Part shown: piece after piece, positions 10,676-64,000 of the stretch | How positions within the stretch are numbered: position 1 is the first letter of the stretch | How the letters are laid out: each line of letters starts with the position of its first letter | From: a virus | Virus record (IMG/VR): IMGVR_UViG_3300023296_001674 | Strand: one strand, 5' to 3' | Length of the DNA stretch: 64,000 nucleotides | Notes under the pieces: model-generated | Told to the model about the DNA's origin: nothing | Databases searched by the model: none | The model's input: the letters and a program-made list of their open reading frames with translations, nothing else | Position numbers and translations under genes: made by a program

Positions 10676-10705
10676 AAACACTTAATCATTAAAGGAGAAT
10701 ACACA

Positions 10706-12309: not shown

Positions 12310-13173
12310 ATGTCTAAAGATATTTATAACACTAAATTTATATTCGGTCAAGATTATCATGGATTTATTTATGAATGGGTTGATAATTCTAATGGTAAAA
12401 AATATATAGGATCGCATAAAGGGTCGATTGATGATGGATATATAGGTTCAGGAACATATTTTATTTCTGCTTATAAAAAAAGAACCCATTGTTTTAGTCG
12501 AATAATATTAGAATATATATCAAAAAATATAGATGATATATATACCATTGAACAAAAATGGTTAAATATGGTAAATAATATATCATCAAATGAATCATAT
12601 TATAATCTATCAAATAACGCAACAGGGGGAAATTCTGAAAAAAACTACGCACGAAAAAGAAATGGTGAATTTACTGAAAAAGAAATGATTGCACATGAGC
12701 GAAAAGCCAATGGTATATTTACACCAAAAGAACTAGAGTTTCATAAACGTCGAAAAAATAGATTTTTAAATGGTGATTATACAAAAGCAGAAAAACAGTC
12801 TTATATACGATCTAAAGAGCGAAAATCAGCAGGGAATTTTACAGATGCAGAAATTAAATATTTTAGTGAACAAAAAAAGAGAAAATCAAATGGTATATTT
12901 ACACCAAAAGAAATAGAGTTTCATAATAATCAAAGTAATCGGAAGTCGGCAGGAAATTTTACAGATGCCGAGTTAAAATGTTTAAATCTCGATAAAATAA
13001 GAAAATCAAAAGGCTTATTTACCGATGCGGAATTAAAAAATTTTAAGAACATGAAGGGAAAACGATGGCTTACCAAAGATTTTATCAATAAATTAATATC
13101 AAAAAATTTAATACAACAATATATTGATGCCGGTTGGATATTTGGAAAATATAAAAAAATCAATCCCAACTAA
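12310..13173 (+). CDS. GIY-YIG homing endonuclease with about 6 tandem NUMOD-like DNA-binding repeats
   Basis: GFIYEW...KYIGSHKG motifs; repeats G(N/I)FT(D/P)xE(I/L). Confidence 0.8.
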   Translation: MSKDIYNTKFIFGQDYHGFIYEWVDNSNGKKYIGSHKGSIDDGYIGSGTYFISAYKKRTHCFSRIILEYISKNIDDIYTIEQKWLNMVNNISSNESYYNLSNNATGGNSEKNYARKRNGEFTEKEMIAHERKANGIFTPKELEFHKRRKNRFLNGDYTKAEKQSYIRSKERKSAGNFTDAEIKYFSEQKKRKSNGIFTPKEIEFHNNQSNRKSAGNFTDAELKCLNLDKIRKSKGLFTDAELKNFKNMKGKRWLTKDFINKLISKNLIQQYIDAGWIFGKYKKINPN

Positions 13174-16100
13174 ATTTATCAATCCCATCAAAATCTATTT
13201 CACTTCCGTCTGATAATGTTAAACTTCCTGACATTTCTTCCGATGTTGGAAGATTGTTTGGATTGCTATCTGCCGTAAATGTTTCACCATCAACTGTTAA
13301 TGCCCACCCTTGTGTGCCTTCCATATTTAGTGTATCTGTTCCCTCGCCGCCCGATATCCAATCACCGCCACCAAATCCGTCGCCGCCTTCGCCACCGAAG
13401 ATAAACATATCATCGCCACCATTGCCCATTACGTGGTCATTAGCATCTGTTGCATCGTCGCTATCAAATGTATCATCTGCTTTTTTTCCTTTGTCTTTTC
13501 CATCTATTTCATTATATTCAGAACCGCCTTCACCACCCTCGCCGCCTTCACCACCATCTTTATCTTTTTTATCTTTACCTTTTCCACCTTCACCGCCTTC
13601 ACCGCCATGTCCATGCCCATGTGATCCACCTTCACCGCCTTCACCACCTTCATTGCCTTCAACGTCGATAATGGTCGTAGCGGTTCCGGTTCCACCTTCA
13701 CTGTCCACTATATTATATGTGAAACTATCTTCACCAGAAAATCCTTCATATGGCGTATAAGTCCATGTTCCATTTTCATTATCTATTATAATTCCATTTT
13801 CAGGATCGTCAATGCTGGTAATAGTTATAGTGTCGCCATCTAAATCTGTATCATTAGATAGCAAATCTTCAGAAGAAAACGTTATAGAATTATCATCATC
13901 AATATCAAATTCATCATCAACACCAAGAGGTGTGGTATTTCCTGTTTCATCTACTAACCACGTGGATGATTGTGTGTCAACAGATACAACAGATGCCGTA
14001 ACAGGTGTATCTCGTTCTATTTCTACTGTTCCATCTGAATACGTTAATGTGTTAACCGAAGTGTTTGATGTTTCTGTTGTTATGTCTGTAGTAGTTGTTT
14101 CTGTAAACACTCGATTAATCACAGTTGTTTTTGTTCCATCGTCATTTTCAACAATCGATTCATTATTTACAAATGTTATGGTTGATTCTGGTTCACTCGT
14201 TATAATATTTTCTTCTGTTTCTATGGTTGTAACAATTTCAGGATCAACATATTCGGTTTCGACATTAGTTAATGTTTCCGTTCGTGTATCTGAGGTTATT
14301 TCGCTATCAATGTTGGGTGTTCCATTTTCGACTTCAACCGTTCCGTCTGAATATGTTATTGTGCTGACGGGAGTTATCGTTGTGGTGGTTGTGGTTTCAG
14401 TCGCATATTCATTTGTGGTTGTTGTAGTAGTATCTATTTGTTCGCGGTTATTATCCGTATCGATAGTTGTATCACTTTCTATTATGTCGTTAGTTGTTTC
14501 CCATGTTTCATCGCCCACAACAGCATCGGTAGTGGTAACGTATTCAGTGGTTATTGTTGGTTCTTCATATGTAGTAACAATTTCGTCCGTGGTATCAACT
14601 CTTGATTCAGTTGTTGTATCTGCTGTAATAACAGGATCGTCCTGTTCAATTTCAACAGTTCCATCTGAATACGTAATGGTTGTTATTTGTGTGGTTGTGG
14701 TTGTGGTTGTTGTATCAGTTTCATAATTGTTTGTGGTTGTGGTCGTTGTATCTAATTGCTCACGGTTATTATCCAAATCATTTGAACGTGACACATCATC
14801 TTCGGTTGATGTTGAAATTAAGGTTTCATCGCCTACGACAACGTTGGTTGTTACTTCTTCTGACGTAACAATTTGTGGCTCTTCGTAAACAACGTTGGTA
14901 TCAGTTAACACTTCTTCTCTTGTATCGGTTGTAGGTTCAACTGTTTCAACTGGCGTTCCGTATTCTATTTCAACTGTTCCATCTGAATAAGTGATAGTGA
15001 TAACGGGTGTTGTTGTTACGGTTGTAGTTGTTATTGTATCATATGTATTTGTGGTTGTGTTGGTAGTATCTAATTGTTCGCGGTTATTATCCGTATCAAT
15101 AGTGCGAACAGTTTCTGATTCTGTTTCGGTGTTAGATAATATTTCATCGCTAACAACTACTGTTGTTTCATGCTCATAGGTTTCAACAATTTCAGGGTCT
15201 TCATTCGTAGTTATTGTTTCTGAAGTCACTTCATCGCGTGTTGATGTATCAGTGGTAGTTTCTATCGCTGGTGTGCCGTATTCTGTTTCTACAGTGCCGT
15301 CGCTGTAAGTTATGGTATGAACAGGCGTAGATGTGGTTGTGGTGGTTGTATCAACCGCATAGGTATCTGTGGTCGTTGTTGTCGTATCTACCCGTTCGTT
15401 ATTATATTCTGTTTCAATAGTTGTCACTACATTTTCTTCTGATGCTGTTCCAGTTTGATATTCATCGCCAATTGTATCCACTGATTGCACATCAGTCGTG
15501 ATTGTAATAACAGGCTCTTCTGTACTTGTGGATATATCAATTTCGCGGATTTCATCACGTGTTGATGTATCAATTTGAACTGTGTTATCGGTTGGTTCTG
15601 CGCGTTCGATTTCAATAGTTCCATCGCTATATGTAATGGTTTGAACTTCGATTGTTGTTGTTGTTTCCAATATGGGCGTTTCAAATGTATCTGTATATTC
15701 ACGCGTCACAGTAACTATTTCTTGATTATTATCTAAATCGTTAACACGCGATGATGAATCATAGAACTCTGTATTAGTTAAAGTTTCTTTGCCGTTGTGA
15801 AGGTCGGTTGAAATTTCATATGTGACAACAATGGTTGGTTCTTCATATGTGGTAACTATTTCATCGGCAATATCGGTTCTTGTTTCTGTATTTGTATTTT
15901 TTGTAATAGACGGATCGCCCTGTTCAATTTCAACTGTTCCATCTGAATAAGTGATAGTTATTACTGGTGTTATTGTGGTGGTAGTCGTTGTATCAATGGC
16001 ATAGTTATTCGTGGTAGTAGTTGTTGTATCTACTTGTTCACGATTGTTATCAGTGTCTATTATACGGTCAATTTCTGTCCCGGTTTCTGATCCAATTAGA

Positions 16101-17152
16101 ATTTCATTACCAATTTCATTTGATATTTCAGTTGTATATTCGGTTGTGATAACAGGTAGTTCTATATCAGTAGCAAATATTGCATCTCTAATCGCAACTG
16201 TTGTATCAACTGTGGTGTTGGATTCTATCACAGGGTCACCCACAATCGTTTCAATAGTGCCATCACTATATGTAATAGTTTCGGTTGGCGTTGTTGTTTC
16301 TGTGACCGTTGAATCAATCGTTGTGGTATCTGTATAATTACGAGTCGTTGTGACTATTTCTTGATTGTTTGCTAGATCATTTTCTTTTGAAACTACATCT
16401 TCGTATGTTGTTACAACACATGGATCATCGATAACTGTATTTGAAATAATTTCGTATGAAATTTCTCTAGACATCTCGGTCACTGGTTCTACAGCATCAT
16501 CGCCACCACCACCATTGGTGCCATTATCAATAGGAAACCCAAGATCGGGGTTAAGCACAGAATTAAGAATTGCGTCAAAGTCAATTTCAGGCATAACGTC
16601 TGTATTCGCGAGTGGATCATTTGGCACCTCGTCAACGCTTTGATTTACATCATTTATTGTAGAAAATCCGCTATCTTCCGCACGCTGCTGTTCTTCTTCG
16701 GCTACTTTTTTAAATACATCATCGCCATGCATTTCGCGTGTATCAAATATCAAACTGGCACGATCTATAGCATAATCTATTTGTTCTGATGTAAACCCAT
16801 TCTCAATTAATTCATTCCTTGTGTAACCATTGACGTCAATAGATACATTATTTATATCATTAAACGCTACTATATTATTTTCAGTATTGACATATATACC
16901 CAACGATGTCTGTATTACTGTGCCTTCTGTGATTAGTGCACTTAACAATTCCGCTTCTGTTAGTTGTGAACCCATGTGAATATTTTGTGAACCAGAACCA
17001 AACACATCTTCTTTATCGCCACCATCACCTTCGTGAAGTTGTTGTACCGATGCATCAAGGTCAATTTCATCTTCGGTCTGTAAGACAGTTAAATCATCAA
17101 GTATTGAGTGATTTTCGCGAACATCGTCGTCGTCATTTGTTATTTCAGCCAT
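13160..17152 (-). CDS. giant Thr-rich tandem-repeat protein with a cadherin-like domain and C-terminal RTX-type Ca-binding repeats
   Basis: About 8 repeats of 100-110 aa (TITYSDGTVEIE, DTDNNREQxDTTTTTTN); cadherin-like ITFSSEDLLSNDTDLDGDTITI...FSGEDSFTY; GGEGG runs and GNGGDDMFIFGGEGGDGFGGGDWISGGEGTDTL. Confidence 0.85.
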   Translation of the reverse strand: MAEITNDDDDVRENHSILDDLTVLQTEDEIDLDASVQQLHEGDGGDKEDVFGSGSQNIHMGSQLTEAELLSALITEGTVIQTSLGIYVNTENNIVAFNDINNVSIDVNGYTRNELIENGFTSEQIDYAIDRASLIFDTREMHGDDVFKKVAEEEQQRAEDSGFSTINDVNQSVDEVPNDPLANTDVMPEIDFDAILNSVLNPDLGFPIDNGTNGGGGDDAVEPVTEMSREISYEIISNTVIDDPCVVTTYEDVVSKENDLANNQEIVTTTRNYTDTTTIDSTVTETTTPTETITYSDGTIETIVGDPVIESNTTVDTTVAIRDAIFATDIELPVITTEYTTEISNEIGNEILIGSETGTEIDRIIDTDNNREQVDTTTTTTNNYAIDTTTTTTITPVITITYSDGTVEIEQGDPSITKNTNTETRTDIADEIVTTYEEPTIVVTYEISTDLHNGKETLTNTEFYDSSSRVNDLDNNQEIVTVTREYTDTFETPILETTTTIEVQTITYSDGTIEIERAEPTDNTVQIDTSTRDEIREIDISTSTEEPVITITTDVQSVDTIGDEYQTGTASEENVVTTIETEYNNERVDTTTTTTDTYAVDTTTTTTSTPVHTITYSDGTVETEYGTPAIETTTDTSTRDEVTSETITTNEDPEIVETYEHETTVVVSDEILSNTETESETVRTIDTDNNREQLDTTNTTTNTYDTITTTTVTTTPVITITYSDGTVEIEYGTPVETVEPTTDTREEVLTDTNVVYEEPQIVTSEEVTTNVVVGDETLISTSTEDDVSRSNDLDNNREQLDTTTTTTNNYETDTTTTTTTTQITTITYSDGTVEIEQDDPVITADTTTESRVDTTDEIVTTYEEPTITTEYVTTTDAVVGDETWETTNDIIESDTTIDTDNNREQIDTTTTTTNEYATETTTTTTITPVSTITYSDGTVEVENGTPNIDSEITSDTRTETLTNVETEYVDPEIVTTIETEENIITSEPESTITFVNNESIVENDDGTKTTVINRVFTETTTTDITTETSNTSVNTLTYSDGTVEIERDTPVTASVVSVDTQSSTWLVDETGNTTPLGVDDEFDIDDDNSITFSSEDLLSNDTDLDGDTITITSIDDPENGIIIDNENGTWTYTPYEGFSGEDSFTYNIVDSEGGTGTATTIIDVEGNEGGEGGEGGSHGHGHGGEGGEGGKGKDKKDKDGGEGGEGGEGGSEYNEIDGKDKGKKADDTFDSDDATDANDHVMGNGGDDMFIFGGEGGDGFGGGDWISGGEGTDTLNMEGTQGWALTVDGETFTADSNPNNLPTSEEMSGSLTLSDGSEIDFDGIDKFSWD

Positions 17153-31779: not shown

Positions 31780-31978
31780 GCACCGCGATATCCACATCAT
31801 ACATATGAACCATCTCGAACAACGATTCTTGTGAAATTTTATGAAACTCAACTTTCTTGCTAAATTCATCCATCATAAAACCATACCACATAGATTTAAA
31901 ATCATAATGTAACACAAACCGCAATCCATCATACCCATCAAGAAATGTTATATTATAATCAATTACATTCATGTCCAC
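31766..31978 (-). CDS. small hypothetical protein
   Basis: ORF. Confidence 0.35.
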   Translation of the reverse strand: MDMNVIDYNITFLDGYDGLRFVLHYDFKSMWYGFMMDEFSKKVEFHKISQESLFEMVHMYDVDIAVLDST

Positions 31979-32370
31979 ATCAATTTAATAGCCATACAAT
32001 CTTCTATGCTATATGGCGCAGTCATTTCGTTATCAAGCAACCACGCCTCTACCTCATGGGTTGATAAATCAACACCACACAAATACCAAATTTCAGATAT
32101 ATCTTTACCTGATCTATAATTGTAGATCAGTGCAGGACCATTCAATCTATGTAGTATACCATTATCGTGCCATGATACCCTAACGGCTTCACCATGACTA
32201 TTAAATTCACATCGTGTGGGTGCACCAGAATCCCGATGTAATTTACCATACTTATACCATTTACGCACCTCTGGTATTTTATTATTGCTATCTAGAAATT
32301 CTGTAATAATTTGATATTTTTTTGTAGGGTCCGCTTGATGTTTTGGAAGCCTACCGCCAGAATCTCTCAT
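31969..32370 (-). CDS. DGPA/WY-NG repeat family paralogue with an AFKLRW-like C-terminus (CMAIKLMWT)
   Basis: HRDSGAPTRCEF...HRLNGPALIYNY. Confidence 0.5.
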   Translation of the reverse strand: MRDSGGRLPKHQADPTKKYQIITEFLDSNNKIPEVRKWYKYGKLHRDSGAPTRCEFNSHGEAVRVSWHDNGILHRLNGPALIYNYRSGKDISEIWYLCGVDLSTHEVEAWLLDNEMTAPYSIEDCMAIKLMWT

Positions 32371-32373
32371 TAA

Positions 32374-32739
32374 CTATCCTTTTAACTTACCCAACGCCAT
32401 TTCTACAAATAACTCCGCATCATCAAGAACTTTAAACACAAACACCGGATTGCTTGTCCATACATTACCCTTAACTATATCACCCGAATATGCACCCGAT
32501 ACCGGATATGCTAACTCTGCATATTCATCCGTGTAAATCATATCAACACTATAATCAATTGAATAACTGTCACACCAATAAATCATATTATTTATCGCCG
32601 CATATTTGTCATCACCATAACAAAAAGAACAAATCGATACAACATATCCACCATGTAATATATTAACAGCCTTCTTATATAGATTCTCATACCTGACATC
32701 ATGTGCCAAATAACTTGTTATTATACTACTTCCATTCAT
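32374..32739 (-). CDS. hypothetical protein
   Basis: 121-aa ORF. Confidence 0.45.
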   Translation of the reverse strand: MNGSSIITSYLAHDVRYENLYKKAVNILHGGYVVSICSFCYGDDKYAAINNMIYWCDSYSIDYSVDMIYTDEYAELAYPVSGAYSGDIVKGNVWTSNPVFVFKVLDDAELFVEMALGKLKG

Positions 32740-35967: not shown

Positions 35968-36096
35968 TATAAATCGCGCCCTATCCACGCAAATATCGCC
36001 GTAATCGACCAACGCAATACATAAAGACCACTATTATTACTATACTAAAATCCATTATAATATCCTTTAATTGTTCCCACCAGTATACGACAGTAA

Positions 36097-36169
36097 GACA
36101 GTTATTGCAATATTATAGATTGGCTTAAAACAGCCATTCCAATCACATCTACCGTGGGGGGAGACAGTT
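36097..36169 (+). repeat. direct repeat copy 2 flanking the island
   Basis: Matches 34404-34478. Confidence 0.65.
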
Positions 36170-36931
36170 ATTTTTATTACCCTTTGACATATTGTCTTTA
36201 GCCCATAATGGCTGAAGATTTGTGTAATGCATCGCTTTATGCTGTTCATTTATATCCGATAAATCAAATGATGATAATGGAATAATATGATCTATATGCC
36301 AACCATCAGTAGCCCAGTTATCCCAAGACATCCCCACCGTAAATTGATTCTCTAAATGTTCCTTTAATGTAGCAATGTCCGTTCCAATCAATTTTAACGC
36401 AGATTTAGTCTTCTTAACCCCGCTATTACGTAAATACTTACCTAACGCATTTCTAAGATTAATACGCAGTTTAAAAAGTGGATCATTAGCATAGCGTTCC
36501 CTTCGAAGTTTATTCCGTATATCCCTTGTTTTACTAGCATATTTTTTGTCCCATCCAGACTTCAATTGTTTAAACTTTGAAGTTTTTGCGTAAGGAACCC
36601 TCCATATATCCCATGAACACTGCTTACAATACGTTTTTTTATCATAATGACACTTGCCAGAAAAATCACTCGGAAAACTATCTAAATCTTTTATAGTATC
36701 ACATTTACGACATTTTCTCTTTCCTTCGCTTTGTAGTATATGTAACTCTGATACATACTTTTTTTCTTCCATCAACTTTTCAGGGTCTTTGCTATTCTTT
36801 ATACTTACACACTGCTTGCAACTTCCCCTTAAATATGAAGGATGATCCCGTATACCTGCTGATGCATAACTGTCTAATGATAATTCCCGATTGCATGTTT
36901 TACATTTTTTCATTCGATTACAATAACACAC
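36149..36931 (-). CDS. HNH homing endonuclease with N-terminal CxxC zinc-finger repeats
   Basis: WHIDHIIPLSSF...NLQPLWAKDNMSKGNK. Confidence 0.75.
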   Translation of the reverse strand: MCYCNRMKKCKTCNRELSLDSYASAGIRDHPSYLRGSCKQCVSIKNSKDPEKLMEEKKYVSELHILQSEGKRKCRKCDTIKDLDSFPSDFSGKCHYDKKTYCKQCSWDIWRVPYAKTSKFKQLKSGWDKKYASKTRDIRNKLRRERYANDPLFKLRINLRNALGKYLRNSGVKKTKSALKLIGTDIATLKEHLENQFTVGMSWDNWATDGWHIDHIIPLSSFDLSDINEQHKAMHYTNLQPLWAKDNMSKGNKNNCLPPR

Positions 36932-39052: not shown

Positions 39053-39238
39053 GGTGCATTCCTTTCATTGGTTTAATTACAGTATAACACCTTGGGACAA
39101 TTATGTCAACGACCCACCAAATAAAAGAATAAATACTATTATAATAATGAATGTGTCGGGTTGTTTGCGCAACCCACGAAGTTCGAAGGATCGAAACTTC
39201 TAACACATTCAATAACTATTTATAGAAGGAATATCACA

Positions 39239-40261
39239 ATGACTAATGCACTCACAACTGAAGATTTCATTCAACGTTCTATAGAAGCGCATAAGCCTTA
39301 TCACGAACATTATGATTATAGCAAAGCGATCTATATCAAAACAACTAAAAAAATAACAATTACATGTAAGTTTCATGGCGACTTCGAAGTTATTGCTGCT
39401 ACCCATCTAGGTGGTGCACATTGCAATAAGTGTAATAAAATGATTAATTCCATAATAAAAGAAGAAAATATTAGATTGCAAAAAATCGCTAACAATTATG
39501 AAATACAAGAAAAAGCAAAGGATTTCTACAACCGTGTTGATGAACGATTTGGTAGATTCAATTATAGTAAGAGTGTATTTGAAAATATGTCAACACCCAT
39601 TATAATAAAATGCACTTGGCATGGCGAATTTGAACAAACACCAAGTGTTCATTTAAGCCACCTTACAGGCTGTCCTGAGTGTAATCAGTTAGTTGCCAAG
39701 TGGCGTAACGATAGAACTACCCCAGCGTTCATTAAAAAGGCGAGAAAGGTGCATGGATGGCTATATGAATATGATAAAGTAGAATTTATTGATAATAAAA
39801 CACCCATTACTATCATTTGCCCAGACCATGGTGTATTCAACCAAACACCATCGAATCACTTAAGGGGTGGAGGATGCCAAAAATGTGGCGGAAGGTTTGG
39901 GGCGAAAGAAACTGAATGGATAGAATATATGGAAGAACGTATAGGTTATTCACTGGTCACCGACCACACTACCTTAAAGATGGCTGATGGCAAAGTATAC
40001 TTCCCTGATGCATATGATCCTGACACTAAAACAGTATATGAATTCGATGGTGATTACTACCATGGCAATCCAAATAGATATGCACCTGATCAAACGAACT
40101 ATACATCAAAGAAAACCATGGGTGAGCTATATGAAGCCACTCTCAAGAAAAAATCGGATTTAGAAACCAATGGCTATACTGTTTTGTCCATATGGGAAAG
40201 CGAATGGGATGCATTCAAGACGACTTTACCTGATAGATTTCCTAATATCAAAGCAGCATAA
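39239..40261 (+). CDS. homing-endonuclease-like protein: 3 zinc-ribbon repeats plus a C-terminal Vsr/PD-(D/E)xK-like nuclease domain
   Basis: C(K/T)xHGxF..Q(T)PS.HL...C..C repeated three times; C-terminal VYEFDGDYYHGNP...VLSIWESEWD. Confidence 0.55.
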   Translation: MTNALTTEDFIQRSIEAHKPYHEHYDYSKAIYIKTTKKITITCKFHGDFEVIAATHLGGAHCNKCNKMINSIIKEENIRLQKIANNYEIQEKAKDFYNRVDERFGRFNYSKSVFENMSTPIIIKCTWHGEFEQTPSVHLSHLTGCPECNQLVAKWRNDRTTPAFIKKARKVHGWLYEYDKVEFIDNKTPITIICPDHGVFNQTPSNHLRGGGCQKCGGRFGAKETEWIEYMEERIGYSLVTDHTTLKMADGKVYFPDAYDPDTKTVYEFDGDYYHGNPNRYAPDQTNYTSKKTMGELYEATLKKKSDLETNGYTVLSIWESEWDAFKTTLPDRFPNIKAA

Positions 40262-40435
40262 AAAATAAGCCAAATAAAAAATTTATCGCGGACGAGAAGT
40301 CACCCTCATACCCGTACTGTAATAGTATAACGATCCTATAAGTGTAAGGTAACAGCCACATGTGAATATATTCCTAGGAATTTTTTTCTATGTGTCATAG
40401 GAATATATACTCACGTATAAATTATAGGTAAAAAA

Positions 40436-40874
40436 TCACAGTGTGACAGAATAAGTGCGCCAACTTTCATCACAGTGTGAATGAAACTGGAAAAATCATC
40501 ACAGTGTGTGCATTTTGGAACACGTGTTTTGCTCACAGTGTGATATTTACCCTCACAGTGTGATTTTTTATCCTCACAGTGTGATATTTGGAACGCTTAT
40601 CTGCTCACAGTGTGATATTTACCCTCACAGTGTGATTTTTTATCCTCACAGTGTGATATTTACCCTCACAGTGTGATATTTACCCTCACAGTGTGATTTT
40701 TTATCCTCACAGTGTGATATTTGGAACGCTTATCTGCTCACAGTGTGATTTTTTATCCTCACAGTGTGATATTTACCCTCACAGTGTGATTTTTTATCCT
40801 CACAGTGTGATATTTACCCTCACAGTGTGATTTTTTATCCTCACAGTGTGATATTTGGAACACACACTGTGATG
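40436..40874 (+). repeat. array of 18 direct repeats of the near-palindrome TCACAGTGTGA (units of 20, 21 or 31 bp) plus one inverted copy; candidate origin or protein-binding array
   Basis: Alternating unit types A (..atatttaccc), B (..attttttatcc) and C (..atatttggaacgcttatctgc); no spacers. Confidence 0.85.
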
Positions 40875-41134
40875 AATGTGAATTATTGAATAACTGTCTC
40901 CACCATGTTCCATAACTGTCTCCACACTAGATATAGTGGGTGTTAATGTGTAATATAGTTGCGCATTATAATTTCGTCATACACTCACAAAGTAGAACAC
41001 TTATAGAACAAAGGTAGTTTTGAATTTTCCATAACAGATGTTATGCGATTCTAACGGGGTAAACAGTGAACATAGGTGGAACATTTGTATCATACATAGT
41101 CCATATTGGTTTGATATGCATTATATATAATACA

Positions 41135-41163
41135 TTGTCATAAGTGTTATACTGTGATATAAT
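41135..41163 (+). promoter_or_regulatory. promoter TTGTCA-N17-TATAAT
   Basis: Upstream of 41169. Confidence 0.45.
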
Positions 41164-41168
41164 GTATC

Positions 41169-52980: not shown

Positions 52981-53231
52981 GTAATATCTTTACAGCGCCG
53001 TTAGGGCTTGTATACGAAATCGACGATCAGAACTATATCACTACTTCCGTGACTATGGACTTAAATGAGATCATCGATACCAACAACGAAGGGTTTCTTG
53101 ATGCATTATCTATCTATGCTACAGATACTGAATTGTTAATGGATATTGATTATAAACTTCTGCGCATTGACGAACATGGTGCACTAGTGTTTAGAGTCCA
53201 TGGCGATTTATCGGCGATCACAGATGACTGA
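52977..53231 (+). CDS. small acidic protein
   Basis: ATGA overlap. Confidence 0.5.
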   Translation: MSNIFTAPLGLVYEIDDQNYITTSVTMDLNEIIDTNNEGFLDALSIYATDTELLMDIDYKLLRIDEHGALVFRVHGDLSAITDD

Positions 53232-53424
53232 TAAACCAAAATCTAAACGGGGTCGAAAGAAAAAGGAACCGGAACCTCCTACCCCGACGAATTTGGTTCA
53301 TTGTACATTGATGGCATGCGGCATGGTTCATCTTGATCCAGCCAAGTGTCCCAAATGCGGCAATGATGATTCACAGCGCCCACTTAAGTTTGTAGGTGTT
53401 CCCATTTATATGACAATTGTTTAG
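53224..53424 (+). CDS. small basic zinc-ribbon protein (CPKCGND)
   Basis: ORF. Confidence 0.45.
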   Translation: MTDKPKSKRGRKKKEPEPPTPTNLVHCTLMACGMVHLDPAKCPKCGNDDSQRPLKFVGVPIYMTIV

Positions 53425-53433
53425 GAGTAGCAT

Positions 53434-53925
53434 ATGACTAAAATGATTTACACTGTAGTGCGCCGTCCCAAGGTTGGACGTCATGGGTTAACCACCATTG
53501 GGTGGGCGGAAGAATGTGGCAGAGAAGCGATTGTCACGGGTGGTTATTTACATACTCGACGCACGTTACCGGGGGAACAAACTTATTACACGGCAATCAT
53601 GACAAAAGCGAACTTTGATAGATGGCTCGGCGACAAATTTGAAACCCGTGCACAAGCCGCGTTCGCTATATGGCGTCTATATTATAAAAATGAGCGTGCG
53701 AAACGTGATCAAGATAAAGCGAATGAAGCGAATGGAAAACATGCACGTGCGGTCGGGCGGAAACATAAACGCGAACATCGTGCGACGCCTGAAGGACAAG
53801 AAGAACGCCGGTTGATGTTAAATCGTAAAGCAAAAGAAAAGCGTGATAACATGACGGATGAACAGCGCAAGGCGATCAATGATAAACTTAAGAAACGTCG
53901 TGCGCATAAGAAAGAATTCGGTTGA
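53434..53925 (+). CDS. basic Lys/Arg-rich protein (possibly nucleic-acid binding)
   Basis: 163 aa; RBS AGGAG. Confidence 0.55.
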   Translation: MTKMIYTVVRRPKVGRHGLTTIGWAEECGREAIVTGGYLHTRRTLPGEQTYYTAIMTKANFDRWLGDKFETRAQAAFAIWRLYYKNERAKRDQDKANEANGKHARAVGRKHKREHRATPEGQEERRLMLNRKAKEKRDNMTDEQRKAINDKLKKRRAHKKEFG

Positions 53926-53950
53926 CATTGTGGAAACACTTGTTATATTA
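53922..53950 (+). promoter_or_regulatory. dedicated promoter TTGACA-N17-ATATTA placing the transcription start at the tRNA 5' end
   Basis: ggTTGACAttgtggaaacacttgttATATTA; overlaps the upstream stop codon. Confidence 0.55.
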
Positions 53951-53958
53951 GTAACATC

Positions 53959-54032
53959 GGGGGCATAGCTCAGTGGTAGAGCAGTGGGTTCTAAACCCTT
54001 TGTCGGGAGTTCGACTCTCCCTGCCCTCGCCA
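53959..54032 (+). tRNA. tRNA with anticodon CUA (amber suppressor, tRNA-Sup); the backbone looks tRNA-Trp/Gln-like with G73 and an encoded CCA end
   Basis: Cloverleaf folded by hand: 7-bp acceptor stem, D arm GCTC/GAGC, anticodon loop TTCTAAA with U33 and A37, T arm GGGAG-TTCGACT-CTCCC, ends GCCA. Confidence 0.8.
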
Positions 54033-54052: not shown

Positions 54053-54529
54053 ATGTCGGCAATTACTGATTTTTACCAAGGGTTCGGAACTGATGATAAA
54101 GGACGCTCACTTGATGATTACTTATTGTTCTCAGATGAACAATTAGAATCGGTTCATGATTATATCCAGTGGATGTTTCCCAACACGGAAGTCAGCCGAT
54201 TTAATATCGATGCACCATTGCTTACAGATGCTGACATTGAATTGTTTATGAATGACATACCAATGATGAACAATGTAACGTTGGCGTGTGCACGCATGAC
54301 TAAATTTTATAAGTTTTCCAATATATATGTTGATGCAGAGAGACAATGGGTTACACAAGGCAATCATAATTTTTTACGACTTACTCGTATGTTGAAATTT
54401 CTTCGATCTATAAACAAAAATTATGAAGCAGAGTCGTTGTTTGTTATGCTTGCTAGAGTTTATTCAGATAATTCATTCGTGGTTGGCAAAGACACACTTC
54501 GGTATTGGTTGGACGCAGCAGAGAGTTAA
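54053..54529 (+). CDS. hypothetical protein
   Basis: RBS AAAGGA; 158 aa. Confidence 0.55.
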   Translation: MSAITDFYQGFGTDDKGRSLDDYLLFSDEQLESVHDYIQWMFPNTEVSRFNIDAPLLTDADIELFMNDIPMMNNVTLACARMTKFYKFSNIYVDAERQWVTQGNHNFLRLTRMLKFLRSINKNYEAESLFVMLARVYSDNSFVVGKDTLRYWLDAAES

Positions 54530-54536
54530 TGAAATG

Positions 54537-54707
54537 AAAAAATGGTTCAGATATAAACGATACACCAAATTTGAAAAAGGCAAACTAGTATTTGATGTTG
54601 GTTGGTCATTTTGGATTGGCAAGTTTCATATCCGTTATAACAAACAAAACAGTTATAGTGGATTGGGGTTTGAATGGTGGGGCGATGAACCTACATGGTT
54701 AGATTAA
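54537..54707 (+). CDS. small Trp-rich basic protein
   Basis: ORF. Confidence 0.4.
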   Translation, partial: KKWFRYKRYTKFEKGKLVFDVGWSFWIGKFHIRYNKQNSYSGLGFEWWGDEPTWLD

Positions 54708-54730
54708 AGCACCTTCGGGTGCTTTTTTTG
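54706..54730 (+). terminator. rho-independent terminator
   Basis: AAGCACC-TTCG-GGTGCTT followed by TTTTTT. Confidence 0.75.
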
Positions 54731-54763
54731 TCTTGACATATCGCTTGACACTGTTATTATACT

Positions 54764-54813: not shown

Positions 54814-54841
54814 TTGACAATTGGTTCAGTTATGTTAGTAT
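54814..54841 (+). promoter_or_regulatory. extended-consensus promoter AAGTGCTTGACAATTGGTTCAGTTATGTTAGTAT
   Basis: TTGACA-N16-TAGTAT. Confidence 0.6.
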
Positions 54842-55031: not shown

Positions 55032-55134
55032 CTGCATCAAAATAAATGCTTGACACGACGAAATAACCTGCTAATATCACTACATCAAACGACACTTACG
55101 GGCTTTTACTTAACACTAATAGGAGACTATCACC

Positions 55135-57321
55135 ATGCAAATCAAAACAGAAAATCGAGAAGTTGGGCGTTCCGGCACTTCAAACGAACGGACGTTTAAC
55201 ATCGATATGACTGCCAAGGCATTTAAGATTCTATCCGACGGATTGTATTCGGATAAAATTCTTGCTGTTGTTCGTGAACTTTCTTGTAATGCCAAGGATT
55301 CACATATCGACGCTGGCAAAAATGACGTGCCTTTCGAAATTCACCTACCGAATTCACTTGAGCCGTGGTTCGCGGTTACTGATTACGGACTTGGGTTATC
55401 ACCTGACGATGTATTGGAAATGTATTCCACTTATTTTGCTTCAACCAAAACGGGTTCAAACGATGTAACGGGGTGTCTTGGACTTGGTTCTAAATCGCCT
55501 TTTGCTTATACCGATTCGTTTTCAGTTGAAACACGTTGGAATGGCACACTTACTGTATTTTCATGTTTCTATAACGAGGCAGGTATCCCCTCAATCGTTA
55601 TTTTGGGTGACGAAGACGGAATGCCTACCGACGAAGTGAACGGCGTTACCGTTAAAATGGCTGTAAACGATGGTGACATGCGCGAATTCGCACAAAAGGC
55701 AATGAAGGCACTTGATCGCTTTGATCCTGCCCCTATCGTTACTGGTAACACTGATTATGAAATTGTTACTAAGACTTATACGGTTGAAGGCAAAGGCTGG
55801 AAGATGCTTGAACGTGAAAGTTCATATGGTGAAAGCAAAATCCATGCTATCCAAGGCAATGTAACATATCCAATTAGTTCACAATCATTAGGCGACTTGA
55901 CAAGCAATCAAGATGCAATTATGGGATTGACAGTTGATTTGTTCTTTGATATCGGCGAGTTGGACGTTGCGGCAAACCGCGAGGCGTTGGGTTATGATGA
56001 AGCAACGATTAAAAATATCAAGGCTAAACTTGATGCCGTATCGACTGAAATTGCCCCATTGTTTCAGGATAAATTTAAGGATTGTAAAACACTTTGGGAT
56101 GCGCGTTTGTTGTTCAAAGAAGTGATCAATCCTTTGACATCTGGCTTGCAACGGATTCTATCTGACAACAATGTTGGGTTGAAATGGAAAAAGCAATCAC
56201 TATCTGATTCGTTCAAATTGGATCGCGATGATTTTCCTAACGTTCAGATTGTATCATTCCAAAAGAATACACGCGGTGGACGTGGGCAAACTGCGGAATG
56301 GAGTTATAACGGTGATATTAAATTCCCCGCCAGTTCCGATATTCTGTTTTTCTATGACGATGTTGGCAATGGTTCGCATAGCCGAGTGACTCATTTTATG
56401 GAAACAAATGGTGACTCTGTTCGTTATCAGCATATGTTCAAAACCGACGATAAAAAAATGATGAAAAAGATTTCTAAGGCGTTGGGTAATGTTACTATTC
56501 AACCTGTAAGCAATCTTGAAAAACGCCCCAAGGCTGTTCGCCAAGCGCGACGAGTTACATCAAAGGTTTTGGAATATGTTGGACGCGCCCATGATCGCCG
56601 TGATAGTTGGAATCCTACTGATCTGGATTTAACGACTGGTGGTGTTTATGTTATGATTGATCGCTTTAAGGTATATGATTCCAATAATGGTTCAGGACGT
56701 GAACGTGAAGATTTTAACACCATTGTCGATTTGGCGAAAGAACATAAAATCGTTGACTTGACTAACAAGATCGTTTATGGAATTCGTAAAGGTGATGTTG
56801 ATAAATTGAAAGATGATTCTGGTTGGGTTAATCTTTTCGACCTGATCCGCGACAAACTTACGGTTGCGGTTAAAAAAGAAAAGGTGGCGCAAGTTATGGC
56901 TGACCGTTATGCCTATCACCAGTTTTCAAATGATTTATCATCGTTCGTTAATGATATGGATGATACTGATTTGGCAAAGGATTCAGTTATTGGAATATTC
57001 AAACGCGCACATGAATATCTTTCAAACCGTGATTCATCTAAGGCACAAGCGATTTCAAGTGTTGCGGATAGCGTAGGATTTACGTTAAAATCTGCCAAGC
57101 CAAAACACGATCTTGGGAAACTTTGGGACGCTGTTAAAAATAAGTATCCATTATTGAAACTTGTTTCTGACAGTGATTTGCGCGGCGGTTATTACAACAA
57201 TCGCGACAACTCTATCAGTGAAAATAACCATGCGGCATTGACTGATTATATCGCGATGGTTGACGCAAAAGACGCAGTGCCAGAAAAGCGTAAAATCCTT
57301 ACGTTGGCCTCGGCGGCATAA
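55135..57321 (+). CDS. rIIA: rIIA-like protein (N-terminal GHKL ATPase-like fold)
   Basis: KAFKILSDGLYSDKILAVVRELSCNAKDSH and GLGSKSPFAYTDSF match T4 rIIA; 728 aa. Confidence 0.85.
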   Translation: MQIKTENREVGRSGTSNERTFNIDMTAKAFKILSDGLYSDKILAVVRELSCNAKDSHIDAGKNDVPFEIHLPNSLEPWFAVTDYGLGLSPDDVLEMYSTYFASTKTGSNDVTGCLGLGSKSPFAYTDSFSVETRWNGTLTVFSCFYNEAGIPSIVILGDEDGMPTDEVNGVTVKMAVNDGDMREFAQKAMKALDRFDPAPIVTGNTDYEIVTKTYTVEGKGWKMLERESSYGESKIHAIQGNVTYPISSQSLGDLTSNQDAIMGLTVDLFFDIGELDVAANREALGYDEATIKNIKAKLDAVSTEIAPLFQDKFKDCKTLWDARLLFKEVINPLTSGLQRILSDNNVGLKWKKQSLSDSFKLDRDDFPNVQIVSFQKNTRGGRGQTAEWSYNGDIKFPASSDILFFYDDVGNGSHSRVTHFMETNGDSVRYQHMFKTDDKKMMKKISKALGNVTIQPVSNLEKRPKAVRQARRVTSKVLEYVGRAHDRRDSWNPTDLDLTTGGVYVMIDRFKVYDSNNGSGREREDFNTIVDLAKEHKIVDLTNKIVYGIRKGDVDKLKDDSGWVNLFDLIRDKLTVAVKKEKVAQVMADRYAYHQFSNDLSSFVNDMDDTDLAKDSVIGIFKRAHEYLSNRDSSKAQAISSVADSVGFTLKSAKPKHDLGKLWDAVKNKYPLLKLVSDSDLRGGYYNNRDNSISENNHAALTDYIAMVDAKDAVPEKRKILTLASAA

Positions 57322-57477: not shown

Positions 57478-58629
57478 ATGAAAACGATTCAAGCCGCAAT
57501 TATCGCCCAAAATTCAATCACACTTATGATTGACGGGCAAACTACGCCTATCGCCTCTTCGCATACAAACTATGAAGAAATTCGTGGACTTGCTGCCGCT
57601 GGCAACTATGCACCAATTGCATCATTGCTTGATATGGTTCAGGTTATTAACGACTTTGGTAAAGGACGCGTTACCGTTGAAAACGGTGAAGTTCTTTATG
57701 ATGGTAAGCCTACCCATAACGCGGTGACTTCGCGTATCCTTCAAATGGTTGAAGAAGGTTTGGAAGTTTCACCAATGGTTGCATTCCTTGATAACCTTAT
57801 GGATAACCCTTCATTCCGTTCCGTTCAACAGTTATACGGTTTCTTGGAAGTGAACGACCTTCCGATCACGGAAGACGGTTTCTTTCTTGCCTATAAAATG
57901 TGCGCCGAGGTTAATGGTAAATTGACTGATATTCGCACGCAAACGTTTGATTATAGCGTTGGCGCAAAACCTGCCGAAATGCCACGTAACGAAGTGAACG
58001 AAGACCCTGATCAAACTTGTTCTTCTGGTTTGCACGTATGCGCCCAAGGTTATCTTGGTTCATACAGTTCTGGCGAACATACGATTTTGGTTAAAGTTAA
58101 TCCTGCCGATGTTGTTGCAGTTCCGACTGACTACAATAACGCCAAAATGCGGGTAAGCAAACATGAAACCGTTTGTAAGGTTACTGCGCGAACTCGCGGT
58201 GCTGTATATACCAGTGCGGTTTATACCCCTTCGGCGGATTCAAAAAGCACACTGGTAAATGGCGATGATTTGCTTACGCTGGATGAAGCAGTTGACGTTC
58301 TTGGGCTTAAGGGTGCTAAAAATCCAATTGCCGCACTACGTAAGCGCCTATCGCGTGCAAAGCTGACTTCTAACCCTAAACTCAAGTCGGTTTTCAAAGA
58401 TGGTGTTGAAATGATTCAAATCATCCAAACGGAGGCCGACGATGTTGAAGTTGCTGACGATTCGGTTATGACTCACGTTGATGCAATCGCATACTTTGCC
58501 AAGCAAAACAAAGCCAATGGCAAGGCACAACCAGCCGACCCGAAAGCGGCATTGCGTAAAATGCTTAATCGTGAATCTGCTTGCAAGCGCGTTTACGTTG
58601 ATGGTGTTGAGATGATCAAAATTCTTTAA
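57478..58629 (+). CDS. rIIB: rIIB-like protein
   Basis: FLDNLMDNPSFRSVQQLYGFLEVNDLPITEDGFFLAYK and QTCSSGLHVC...VKVNPADVVAVPTDYNNAKMR match T4 rIIB. Confidence 0.85.
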   Translation: MKTIQAAIIAQNSITLMIDGQTTPIASSHTNYEEIRGLAAAGNYAPIASLLDMVQVINDFGKGRVTVENGEVLYDGKPTHNAVTSRILQMVEEGLEVSPMVAFLDNLMDNPSFRSVQQLYGFLEVNDLPITEDGFFLAYKMCAEVNGKLTDIRTQTFDYSVGAKPAEMPRNEVNEDPDQTCSSGLHVCAQGYLGSYSSGEHTILVKVNPADVVAVPTDYNNAKMRVSKHETVCKVTARTRGAVYTSAVYTPSADSKSTLVNGDDLLTLDEAVDVLGLKGAKNPIAALRKRLSRAKLTSNPKLKSVFKDGVEMIQIIQTEADDVEVADDSVMTHVDAIAYFAKQNKANGKAQPADPKAALRKMLNRESACKRVYVDGVEMIKIL

Positions 58630-61695: not shown

Positions 61696-63527
61696 TACAA
61701 TTATTGAATTCGCCCGAAAGGGCACACGAGTTGCTAGGACCACGGTGTGTATACGCACTGAATAGAACAGAGGTTCTAACCCTCTGAATTCCAGTTAGGT
61801 TTGCTGGATTATGGAATAGCCGACATGCGACGGTATGGTCTGGTGAAATCATAATAGTTCAATAGCATTAAATTTGTTACGCTGGAACTGAAATGAAGGC
61901 GTTACTATGGGAAGCCATTTAAGGTGAGTGGTTCAGTGCTTAACGAAGATGATATGTCTGGAGTGGTCCAGTGAAAATAGGACGAGTCAAAACGTCAACA
62001 TATTAGCTTCCCGAATTAATTATTGCTGGTAAGGTTCTGCTCAAGCGTTCATAGCGTAGAGATAAACTGCAAAAGATGATAAAATCCGTAAGGAGTTTGT
62101 TCCACTTGTAGTGAATGATGGTTCGGGTATTAGTAGTGCCCTTATGCAAAGTGCAAATCCCATCACAGCAAAACATAGTTAATATCGTTGAACTCTATCC
62201 TATTGGAAGGTGAAACTGAAATCCGTATGGCAAAGTAATCGATTTAGATCATGCGAAGTTATTAGGTTACGATATTATTAGTTAAATAATGCTTGACAGT
62301 TTATGTATGTTGAGGTATTATAAAGAATAGAATGTGATGGAAGGTTGGTATCTTCTTCGGTGGCACAAACCACGGGTAGCTTAAATACCAGAACGTAAGT
62401 TCAGAAAAGCACATTCCCTAAGTTTAGGTTAAAAGCATCGAGGCGTAGTGGCTGGTAGGTGTTATAACCTTAGCGAAATGTAGCGGCACTGGTTGGGTTT
62501 ACACGACTTGGCAAAGACTGCATCAGAGTAGCTTGAAATGGGTGGTGCCGATACGAAGGCAGATGATATAGGGAGTGCGCACAAACTATATTATTTCATG
62601 CGGAGCATGGACACGCAGGATTTGCCCAAATGGGCACACGAGCTTGCGATAGTGTACGATGCACGACGTACCTAGAATACAGCCGGTAGTGAGCCAGTAA
62701 AGTTACACTCACAAGGAGGTTGCTAGGACATTTAATGATGTAACACATTGAATGTATATGGGTTAACCATTGAAGCAGAGTGGGTTTAATTCCTACGCGC
62801 ATTTCCAATTCCCGAAAGGGAATACGACGTTGGTATGTTGATCGTCGGCAAATACATCGGCACCCGTGTTAACCTTGGAGTACACGTTAAATAAATCCAA
62901 GGGATAGGTTCGCCCTATGCCCGATGATTCTACAGGGAAATGGTTGTTGAATCACTTGTGTAGAGAACCCCCCTCTGCTAATACCAACCAAAAAATATAG
63001 GGAGCGTGGCTGAAATGTAGCAAATCAGGTGTGTCACGTAAGTTAATCTACTGAAAATTTGTTGCCCCTGCCTAAGTGGGTTAATTGGGTTTTATAGAAA
63101 AGTAGTATATAATATGTAGGGAATTTGCGAAAGAACGTAAGTGGAGCCGATACAAGTGATAGGAAATTAGACCTTGACGTGGACGCTAAGAAGTTTACAA
63201 TCTGAATTTCAAAACAATTCATCGTGGTGATACTTAACACCAGTAGAACAAATAACAGTAAGGAACGATGGAGCCGGATATCCATGCTATAAAAAACCGG
63301 CATACTTATTCGCCCGAATGGGCAAACAGTTTTGGATTAAATGGGCGTAGCTCATTAGCGGTGAAGACGTAAGTGCTTCTTTATTAAGAAACGCATAAGT
63401 GACATTCGCGATGTCATGGGGTGAAATCCCTCAATCCAAATTTAACTATACGCAGGGCAATCCCGTAAGACGTAAGTGTTTCCAAATCACAAGACCTCCT
63501 TTCGTTAAATATTGTGATTGAATGAAG
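61696..63527 (+). ncRNA. about 1.8 kb ORF-free, GC-richer segment with many GNRA/UUCG tetraloop hairpins and repeated modules; candidate large structured ncRNA(s)
   Basis: GCCC-GAAA-GGGC at 61712, GCCC-AAAT-GGGC at 62625, GCCC-GAAT-GGGC at 63311, TCCC-GAAA-GGGA at 62810; ACGTAAGT occurs 5 times; internal promoter at 62293-62321; terminator at 63528-63561. Confidence 0.5.
62293..62321 (+). promoter_or_regulatory. promoter TTGACA-N17-TATTAT inside the non-coding segment
   Basis: aataatgcTTGACAgtttatgtatgttgaggTATTAT. Confidence 0.55.
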
Positions 63528-63765
63528 CCCCATCAGCATCCAGCGGTGGGGTTTTGTTTTTCCAATCATGCTCCCACATAACGACAAGATTATAACCCGA
63601 ATCTTTAATAAGTGTTTCTTTTTTAAGTGTATTCTCATATAGATGTTTGAACGGTTGTTTATTTGATGGATTTAGTTTGGTATGATCGGTGGTATTTGGA
63701 TTACCATGCCAATAATCGCCGTGAAATTCATAAACCGTATTAGTCGTTGGATTATAACCATCCAC
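63505..63765 (-). CDS. Vsr/PD-(D/E)xK-like nuclease domain (homing-endonuclease-like), paralogue of 39239..40261; the gene probably extends further 5' and may run off the window
   Basis: TVYEFHGDYWHGNP...LVVMWEHDW. Confidence 0.5.
   Translation of the reverse strand: MDGYNPTTNTVYEFHGDYWHGNPNTTDHTKLNPSNKQPFKHLYENTLKKETLIKDSGYNLVVMWEHDWKNKTPPLDADGASFNHNI
63528..63561 (+). terminator. rho-independent terminator
   Basis: CCCCATCAGCATCCAGCGGTGGGG followed by TTTTGTTTTT; overlaps the 3' end of the convergent minus-strand gene. Confidence 0.65.
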
Positions 63766-64000
63766 TATGAATTGATTTATTTTAACTTGGCGATGATTTC
63801 TATCATTTGGAAGACCGATTGCATCAAGCCATTTTGTTTCTGATTTAGAAACATTATTGGTGCATTTTGCACAACCGCGACCTGATATATGATCTGTTGG
63901 GCGTTGCGTAAAGATACCATGTTTTTTGCATATTATATTAATATTTGTTCGTTTATTAACATATATAGATTGTGAATAGTCATATTTACCACTGTGTGCA

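Follow-up and report, generated by a model that had tools for sequence, protein, structure and literature searches.

The tRNA locus and its source

The subject of this analysis is a tRNA gene on a 64,000-nucleotide stretch of viral DNA, the whole of which is called the window below, from the IMG/VR record IMGVR_UViG_3300023296_001674. It is the sole tRNA gene of the window, occupies positions 53959-54032 of the forward strand and, as delimited by ARAGORN, is 74 nt long including an encoded CCA. Its anticodon, CUA, reads the amber stop codon UAG. An early-type promoter precedes the gene, and two short open reading frames (ORFs) and homologs of rIIA and rIIB follow it. The features of the locus are:

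53434-53925 (+), ORF of 163 aa with a Lys/Arg-rich C-terminus and no family match
53922-53949 (+), sigma-70-type early promoter: TTGACA at 53922-53927, a 16-nt spacer with TG, and TATATT at 53944-53949 (11 of 12 matches)
53959-54032 (+), the CUA tRNA gene
53991-53993 (+), its anticodon, CTA (CUA; reads UAG), placed by ARAGORN at tRNA position 33
54053-54529 (+), OGFr_N-family ORF (PF04664) of 158 aa, starting 20 nt 3' of the tRNA with an AAAGGA ribosome-binding site
54534-54707 (+), small ORF of 57 aa, the last of the transcription unit (called at 10482-10655 of the fetched locus L001)
54706-54725 (+), intrinsic-terminator-like hairpin, AAAGCACC-TTCG-GGTGCTTT, followed by a T run
54733-54760, 54814-54841, and 55050-55077, promoter-like sites upstream of rIIA
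55135-57321 (+), rIIA homolog of 728 aa, 1.1 kb downstream of the tRNA
57478-58629 (+), rIIB homolog, 383 aa according to the gene call of the source assembly

The window is 100% identical, over a 13.9-kb overlap read in two fetched loci (L004 and L134), to a 570,549-bp metagenomic contig (ena:ERZ27315719:k141_202852); a second copy of this contig has 570,750 bp. A phage of ~570 kb would be among the largest known, and no close cultured relative of it was found. Copies occur in assemblies of six samples (Logan SRR7528202 and SRR7528804, three ENA assemblies, and JGI 3300022821), with one mismatch in the ~70 kb compared; as all of them are essentially identical, population data are uninformative. 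The readable sequence comes to 90,999 bp (91 kb), or 16% of the contig, and this is the part to which statements about the phage as a whole refer.

The tRNA is a regular cloverleaf. Its match to Rfam RF00005 scores 65 bits, where the gathering score is 29 (E = 7.6e-12), and covers model positions 1-71 of 71. The acceptor stem of 7 bp (G1-C72, G2.U71, G3-C70, G4-C69, G5-C68, C6-G67, and A7-U66) is followed by U8 and A9, a D stem GCUC/GAGC with the loop AGUGGUA containing G18 G19, a seven-nucleotide anticodon loop (U32 U33 C34 U35 A36 A37 A38), a four-nucleotide variable loop (UGUC), a T arm GGGAG/UUCGACU/CUCCC, and G73 before the encoded CCA. The consensus positions U8, A14, G18 G19, U33, G53, T54 Psi55 C56, A58, and C61 are all present. 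The stems have 7, 4, 5, and 5 bp with the exception of U28.U42, and the single irregularity lies here, at the top of the anticodon stem, where a G27.U43 pair is followed by the U28.U42 mismatch (flagged by cmscan). The minimum-free-energy fold recovers the acceptor, D, and T arms and not the canonical anticodon arm: it pairs G29-G31 with C39-C41 and U32/U33 with A38/A37, leaving the anticodon in a three-nucleotide loop, and its z-score is only -1.88.

A preliminary description of this DNA, made from its letters alone, had folded a canonical cloverleaf with a CUA anticodon by hand and suggested ARAGORN as a check. ARAGORN, run on the region, gives the same anticodon and Rfam agrees; U33, A37, G73, and the D and T arms that it listed can all be read in the sequence, and the interval that it assigned to the tRNA with its promoter, 53922-54032, has the -35 box and the CCA end as its exact limits. 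We conclude that the tRNA gene is genuine and that its product is very probably a functional amber suppressor made early in infection.

The claim that the tRNA has its own promoter also holds, for the near-consensus sigma-70-type element at 53922-53949 belongs to a family. The pattern occurs 24 times in the window against 1.5 expected from shuffles (examples are at 1964, 2343, 34478, 44901, 46635, 49983, 54733, and 55050). It consists of TTGACA, a 16-nt spacer with TG, and TAnnnT, is oriented with the genes, and often has the TGA of the preceding gene within its -35 hexamer. The TGA stop of the ORF upstream of the tRNA likewise lies inside the -35 box of the tRNA promoter, as at five or more other early promoters of the window. 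The 24-member family and the embedded stop codon place the tRNA gene in the early program of the phage. Judging by spacing, its transcription would start near 53956, giving a leader of ~3 nt before the tRNA. Because no terminator intervenes, the tRNA and the OGFr_N ORF are probably cotranscribed; the hairpin at 54706-54725 is the probable end of this transcript, of which the tRNA would probably form the 5' element, ahead of the OGFr_N ORF, the 57-aa ORF, and the terminator, in ~0.8 kb altogether.

The genetic code around the tRNA

In the readable part of the genome, UAG behaves as an ordinary stop codon. ORFs tile 0.870 of the 91 kb under code 11, 0.877 with TAG read as sense, and 0.880 in a control with TGA read as sense; the gain for TAG, 0.7 points, is thus not above that for TGA. 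TAG terminates 20 of the 175 ORFs (11-12%) and nine of the 54 with at least 150 aa, among them a Pfam-supported NAD-dependent DNA ligase. The preliminary description was right that the standard code prevails near the tRNA, with a code 11 coverage of 87% and TAG as a normal stop. Its account of stop usage as TAA-dominant with few TAG stops is only partly borne out, as the window has 55 TAA, 52 TGA, and 15 TAG. The connection that it drew from the anticodon to stop-codon recoding is unsupported so far: the scan for in-frame TAG that it proposed, as run on the 91 kb, finds neither enrichment nor a gain of the code-15 type. The other role that it offered as a fallback, such as read-through regulation, may apply.

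Individual TAG stops are similarly unremarkable. Read-through past TAG would extend proteins by a median of 14.5 codons, against ~7 for TAA and TGA (p = 0.22), and back-up stops do not come earlier after TAG. Same-frame ORF pairs joined by a single TAG occur at chance frequency, at 31969-32739, at 53140-53922 (a double TAG), and twice in the flanking locus L134. Two of the downstream genes, starting at 32370 and 53434, were examined and each has a ribosome-binding site of its own, and no homolog spanning a TAG junction was found for any same-frame pair of the 91 kb. Candidate “conserved in-frame TAGs” were rejected, being antisense shadows of real genes.

The Pfam, PHROG, and NCBIfam results for the 91 kb include no release factor, release factor 2, or glutaminyl-tRNA synthetase (GlnRS) gene. 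The CUA tRNA is the only tRNA in this sequence, and the sole synthetase, ~60 kb from it, is a threonyl-tRNA synthetase (ThrRS) without its N-terminal domains. A CUA tRNA does not by itself imply recoding, because cultured phages with the standard code carry such tRNAs (see below).

Identity and charging of the tRNA

To what class of tRNA the body belongs was assessed with isotype hidden Markov models (HMMs) of 797 phage tRNAs with the anticodon masked and with the bacterial identity sets of a published review. The HMM scores are 42.1 for Gly, 41.8 for Trp, 41.8 for Thr, and 28.7 for Gln; among the three top-scoring isotypes, G73 is found only in Trp. Seven of the ten elements of the bacterial Trp set are matched (G73, G3-C70, G4-C69, G5-C68, A9, C34, and A36), the unmatched ones being A1-U72, G2-C71, and C35. 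From the Gln set, G73, G3-C70, G10, U35, and A37 are matched and U1-A72, G2-C71, U34, G36, and U38 are not. Descent from a tRNA-Gln, as in suppressors of the supE type, is contradicted by the Gln score (28.7 versus 42), a D arm that is GCUCAGUGGUAGAGC and not of the UCGCCAAGCGGUAAGGCA type, and a G-C pair at 1-72. Two further comparisons decide neither the isotype nor the host: BLAST against E. coli genomes returns no more than a plasmid-borne tRNA-Asn at 76%, and in a GTDB pattern scan the D and T arms recur in tRNAs for Met, Thr, and Ala.

These marks suggest a Trp-type body, plausibly descended from a tRNA-Trp, in which C35 has become U. According to the review, the amber suppressor form of E. 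coli tRNA-Trp accepts glutamine, recognition by GlnRS as well as LysRS is driven by U35, and G73 moves a Lys-type suppressor towards Gln. By this analogy, the phage tRNA would probably be charged by host enzymes with Gln, perhaps with Trp. The “tRNA-Trp/Gln” backbone of the preliminary description thus stands in its Trp half, on the identity marks and the HMM score of 41.8; its Gln half fails for the body (28.7), with Gln instead the likely charged amino acid. Charging by the ThrRS of the phage was considered and is scarcely plausible, the tRNA having neither the Thr anticodon determinants nor C2-G71.

CUA tRNAs of other phages and the top of the anticodon stem

No close relative of the tRNA turned up in IMG/VR or in JGI metagenomes with an exact core pattern or a degenerate CUA pattern. 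A degenerate pattern with the D arm GGUAGAGCA and the loop YUCUAAA retrieved 81 IMG/VR loci (L192-L271 and L126) with 80 distinct CUA tRNAs, the closest of which agrees with the window tRNA at 57 of 71 positions. These loci lie on contigs of at least 200 kb in 23 of 81 cases, against seven of 120 for a comparable pattern with any anticodon (p = 1.5e-5). Their neighborhoods look standard-code, TAG accounting for 15.1% of stops near the CUA tRNAs and 18.9% near control tRNAs.

The irregular stem top of the window tRNA recurs in this set. The 27-43 pair is non-Watson-Crick in 54 of the 80 CUA tRNAs, as compared with 34 of 149 sense tRNAs that share this D arm (odds ratio 7, p = 5e-11) and 195 of all 787 controls. 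A mismatch at 31-39 is seen in 22 of the 80 and in 34 of the 787 controls, and both top pairs of the anticodon stem are non-Watson-Crick, as in the window tRNA, in just 13 of the 787. In published experiments, unpinning 27-43 raises stop-codon read-through, including that by CUA-anticodon tRNA-Thr and tRNA-Trp. Since the weakened pair is a feature of the class, and since unpinning it raises read-through, we take this as evidence that phage CUA tRNAs, including that of the window, are shaped for suppression and are not decaying.

Solitary CUA tRNAs and the rIIA-rIIB genes

An rIIA alignment search of metagenome contigs and IMG/VR yielded 160 rIIA loci (L274-L433) with up to 10 kb on each side; rIIA was the only early-gene anchor with which the linkage was measured. 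Fifty-two of these loci hold tRNAs, 267 in total and 190 distinct. CUA is the second commonest anticodon among them, with 13 distinct sequences in 20 of the 160 loci; among the tRNAs of control loci it accounts for two of 797 distinct sequences (odds ratio 29, p = 2.6e-8). All 20 lie on the strand of rIIA, and in 15 of the 20 loci the CUA tRNA is the sole tRNA. In several loci it begins shortly past the rIIB stop, by 8-9 nt in L288, L331, L410, and L427 and by 38 nt in L326 and L414; in some others it stands 0.5-1 kb upstream of rIIA, including L274, whose rIIA is the closest to that of the window (39%). Examples of the rII-linked CUA tRNA genes are:

L288, 5108-5182
L331, 12918-12992
L410, 8950-9024
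L274, 9407-9481

Among 12 aligned rII-linked CUA tRNAs, compensatory changes are found at 16 of 20 pairs, and U33-C34-U35-A36-A37 is invariant. As the stems covary around an unchanging anticodon loop, the CUA anticodon of these tRNAs has been under long-term selection. Most of them form one lineage (acceptor stem GCGCUAG, A73), so that independent origins are few, perhaps four to six. TAG is not depleted at these loci (a share of 11.8% versus 12.1%), the rIIA frames of nine metagenome CUA loci contain no in-frame stops, and no conserved in-frame TAG was seen in the eleven CUA-bearing rIIA loci examined. Our literature search found no paper that joins rIIA, rIIB, and a suppressor tRNA.

The window tRNA fits the rII pattern by its position 1.1 kb upstream of rIIA, its strand, and its solitude within 91 kb, and does not fit it by sequence. 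The rIIA of the window is itself at most 31% identical to any from a cultured phage, the best matches including roseophages, Xanthomonas phage XacN1, and large Vibrio and Stenotrophomonas phages, and no close relative of it was found in IMG/VR.

It is possible, though we hold this only tentatively, that solitary early CUA tRNAs coupled to rIIA-rIIB constitute a module that is conserved under selection among many uncultured phages of the T4-like and jumbo kinds, of which the present megaphage has independently built its own version, and that such standard-code phages depend on a few UAG codons being read as sense. The dependence is suggested by the retention of CUA tRNAs where no other tRNA is nearby, together with the invariant loop and covarying stems. 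The codons concerned could be a few in-frame ambers or sites of programmed read-through in genes distant from the tRNA. If true, this would amount to a hidden, limited recoding launched with the rII immediate-early program, possibly timing late or lysis functions.

A proposed role for the tRNA and its alternatives

We favor the view that the gene is probably a working amber-suppressor tRNA gene of the ~570-kb phage, providing partial read-through at a limited set of UAG sites. Because UAG is an ordinary stop in the part read, partial read-through is preferred to a role as the adaptor of a wholly reassigned codon. From the gene and its structure, the promoter context, the local code, and the selection on comparable rII-linked CUA tRNAs, we infer that it is expressed, processed, charged, and active in suppression at specific UAG targets, along the following lines. 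Host sigma-70 RNA polymerase would use the strong promoter of the gene to transcribe the tRNA as soon as infection begins, and RNase P would trim the ~3-nt leader, the CCA being already encoded. A36-A37-A38 would serve as the recognition sequence for A37 modification of the MiaA type. A host synthetase, most likely GlnRS and possibly TrpRS, would charge the tRNA, which would then rival release factor 1 at UAG, with the weak top of the anticodon stem (G27.U43 and U28.U42) expected to boost read-through.

Several observations weigh against this view or parts of it. The Trp assignment is not decisive, as the HMMs for Gly and Thr give equal scores; at G1-C72 and G2.U71 the tRNA deviates from the Trp and Gln sets alike, and the acceptor stem resembles that of tRNA-Ala with the G.U moved to 2-71. 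The best match to the whole tRNA, at 60 of 71 positions, is a sense phage tRNA-Lys(UUU), and agreement with an rII-linked CUA tRNA reaches 54 of 74. As no relative was found and the copies in six samples are nearly identical, selection is documented for comparable tRNAs and not for this gene. There is neither avoidance of TAG nor use of tandem stops in the sampled DNA, though an efficient early suppressor should select for one or the other; a suppressor that is weak or has little effect would be in keeping with this. Finally, the structural and lysis genes all lie in the other 84% of the genome, outside the sample.

The last point bears on the alternative that the phage uses recoding of the code-15 type in its late genes, with in-frame TAG in the structural and lysis genes of the other 480 kb and the early suppressor acting as a switch that times late functions. 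CUA suppressors are present in 40% of TAG-recoded phages, for which the published model is one of standard-code early and recoded late genes; in recoded jumbo phages, recoding has been found confined to regions of hallmark genes, and the Lak megaphages, of similar size, are recoded. A sole tRNA in 91 kb, lying in an early-gene region and predicted to be expressed early, would suit such a switch, and the solitary CUA tRNAs retained at rII loci imply that some UAG needs reading. Against this, TAG makes up 11-12% of stops here, whereas in a relative poised for recoding the stop that was later reassigned had fallen to 2.7% (Borges et al.). The coding density of the sample is 87%, as opposed to <78% in recoded huge phages, and the 91 kb yielded no gene for release factor 2 or GlnRS. 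Alternative codes have been reported in 3.6% of jumbo phages, at 5.8-8.8% in the rumen and in pig and human gut and at 0-0.65% in other habitats, and the sigma-70 promoters, as we infer, point to a host with TTGACA/TATAAT-type promoters and not to gut Bacteroidota. Cultured CUA-bearing phages are annotated with the standard code, and their authors report no recoding. Given the base rates among jumbo phages and the normal use of TAG, we consider late recoding unlikely.

Next to be weighed against partial suppression is the notion that the tRNA arose from a sense tRNA by an anticodon mutation, such as Trp CCA to CUA, and is neutral or decaying, with no selected function. That conversion needs a single base change, and a dispensable tRNA would sit well with the lack of TAG avoidance and tandem stops, with the failure to find close relatives that could show conservation, and with the mismatch in the anticodon stem. 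The structure is otherwise flawless, however, at 65 bits, the consensus promoter has been maintained, the weak stem is a class feature of phage CUA tRNAs and not decay, and purifying selection clearly acts on the comparable solitary CUA tRNAs that adjoin rII. This makes a neutral origin very unlikely.

Very improbable, too, is a non-decoding role, be it protection, as decoy or shield, from an anticodon nuclease of the host or another tRNA-directed defense, or service as a processing or stability element of the downstream mRNA. The tRNA is predicted to head an mRNA and it adjoins rII, whose products in T4 counter exclusion systems. The phage encodes a Thg1-like enzyme, of a family that repairs tRNA 5' ends, besides the truncated ThrRS, and the nearest whole-sequence identity of the tRNA is to a phage tRNA-Lys(UUU), tRNA-Lys being a nuclease target. 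None of these roles needs a CUA anticodon, though, and the strictness with which the rII-linked tRNAs conserve U33-CUA-A37 suggests decoding; nor is any defense or nuclease partner evident nearby.

A tRNA-Pyl that inserts pyrrolysine at UAG, as the ARAGORN label has it (ARAGORN so names every CUA tRNA), is refuted by the canonical G18 G19 and T54-Psi55-C56, the seven-nucleotide D loop, the four-nucleotide variable loop, and the nominally five-position anticodon stem, with no pylS or pylBCD in the 91 kb and with the weak PylS_Cterm match of the ThrRS (E = 7e-4) reflecting only general class-II similarity. The hallmarks of tRNA-Pyl would instead be a variable loop of 3 nt, an anticodon stem of 6 bp, a small D loop without G18 G19, and an atypical T loop.

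Neighboring genes and other features of the phage

The 163-aa ORF upstream of the tRNA is preceded in the same frame by a 74-aa ORF (53200-53433), which ends in a double amber, TAG-GAG-TAG, overlapping the ribosome-binding site of the next gene. The OGFr_N protein downstream is predicted to form a confident all-helical domain (predicted local distance difference test score 92), whose structural matches are only generic helical ones and uninformative. A functional tie between it and the tRNA was rejected, as the two nearest OGFr_N homologs, on related phage contigs, have no adjoining tRNA.

Just outside the window, in its upstream flank (L004), are genes that touch on tRNA metabolism. The ThrRS gene (L004 2154-3371, ~6.4-7.6 kb upstream of the window start) encodes the catalytic and anticodon-binding domains only; it matches the TIGR00418 profile at positions 171-559 of 565, the N-terminal TGS and editing domains being missing. 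Nearer to the window are a histidine-phosphatase-family gene (L004 6791-7489) and the Thg1-like gene of the tRNA-His guanylyltransferase family (L004 8958-9872). Thg1 homologs occur within a few kb of CUA tRNAs in the IMG/VR loci L215 (47% identical) and L200, and they adjoin rIIA in XacN1.

Within the window, the NAD-dependent DNA ligase is split between different frames, with an adenylation and OB part (4883-6088, 401 aa, ending in TAG) and a BRCT-containing part (6133-6951, 272 aa). The reverse strand carries, at 13160-17152, a gene for a protein of 1330 aa that has a cadherin-like domain and matches no PHROG; no other gene of the window is a candidate for a virion protein or adhesin. Between 20227 and 35527, eleven paralogous small ORFs (~80-140 aa) without a family match form tandem clusters on both strands. 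Homing-endonuclease-like DUF723 genes number at least four in ~40 kb (39161-40261 and 63505-64000 in the window, the second running off its end; 10001-10735 and 15162-15899 in L134) and are accompanied by NUMOD3, HNH_5, and T5orf172 endonuclease-like genes. Two gaps of ~0.9 kb each, 40262-41168 and 61696-62595, have no ORF of 60 aa or more; an Rfam search of both gave no credible match, only SNORA79 at E = 0.42, far under its gathering score.

Comparison with known systems

The role of suppressor tRNAs in standard-code phages is an acknowledged open question, and the present case, in which one CUA tRNA stands under an early promoter of its own and TAG is still a normal stop, provides a clean example. 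The leads most worth following are the weakened 27-43 pair and the recurrent linkage to rII. If the latter is functional, UAG read-through would be connected with the immediate-early, anti-exclusion, and lysis-timing program of large phages, and cryptic, limited reading of UAG as sense might be far more widespread than the recoding described in gut phages. Should the full genome prove to be recoded, recoding of the code-15 type would extend to a megaphage whose host, on our reading of its promoters, is other than the Bacteroidota of Lak.

The code-15 phages (crAss-like, Lak, and Agate among others; Borges et al.; Devoto et al.) resemble the window phage in having a phage CUA tRNA in standard-code early DNA, with Lak also of megaphage size and with host GlnRS as the presumed charging enzyme. 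They differ in that code 11 leaves their coding density low, their structural and lysis genes contain in-frame TAG, TAG has been lost as a stop, and a release factor 2 gene is sometimes present. The 91 kb shows none of these features.

The E. coli tRNA-Trp amber suppressor (CCA to CUA) shares G73, A9, G3-C70 to G5-C68, C34, A36, and U35 with the window tRNA. It is glutaminylated, as would be expected of the phage tRNA, and weakening of the 27-43 pair alters and raises its read-through. The E. coli suppressor, however, is a laboratory mutant of a host gene, with A1-U72 and G2-C71, whereas the window tRNA is phage-borne under its own promoter, with G1-C72, G2.U71, and the D stem GCUC.

Those CUA tRNAs that directly follow rIIB (L288, L331, L410, and L427) are likewise solitary, co-oriented near rIIA-rIIB, and non-Watson-Crick at 27-43, with TAG as a normal stop nearby. 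Unlike them, the tRNA of the window has G73 and belongs to a separate transcription unit ahead of rIIA; theirs are downstream of rIIB, have A73, and are identical at no more than 54 of 74 positions.

Cultured code-11 phages with annotated CUA tRNAs include Sinorhizobium phages phiM12, M7, and M19, Stenotrophomonas phages CM1, RAS14, and DLP_5, and Xoo-sp13; about 95 Mycobacterium phage records also match as carriers, some of them annotated as tRNA-Pyl. In these cultured phages, as in the window, the tRNA is found among early small genes. In contrast to the window tRNA, theirs are in or near larger tRNA sets and unrelated in sequence, and phiM12 has no rII within 12 kb on either side.

The Xanthomonas jumbo phage XacN1 (AP018399.1) offers a further parallel. 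Its tRNA-Sup(CUA) genes (36047-36205) belong to a genome annotated with the standard code, like the part read of the window phage, and both phages have CUA tRNAs in an early region with rIIA, rIIB, and a Thg1-like gene, the latter adjoining rIIA/rIIB in XacN1 and being more distant in the window phage. XacN1 has two tandem suppressors per terminal repeat among 29 tRNA-like sequences, 23 kb from rIIA, while the window phage has a solitary suppressor with its own promoter 1.1 kb from rIIA; the CUA tRNAs of the two are alike only in general tRNA features. Amber stops are rarer in XacN1, with 18 among 592 proteins (~3%) versus 11-12% in our sample, and its authors, who read through all 18 in silico, found no targets. 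Our phage presents the same combination, with a contig above 200 kb (570,549 bp), the standard code in the 16% sampled, a CUA tRNA, and no recognizable read-through target. CUA tRNAs in large standard-code phages were thus already known, and the tRNA described here adds another.

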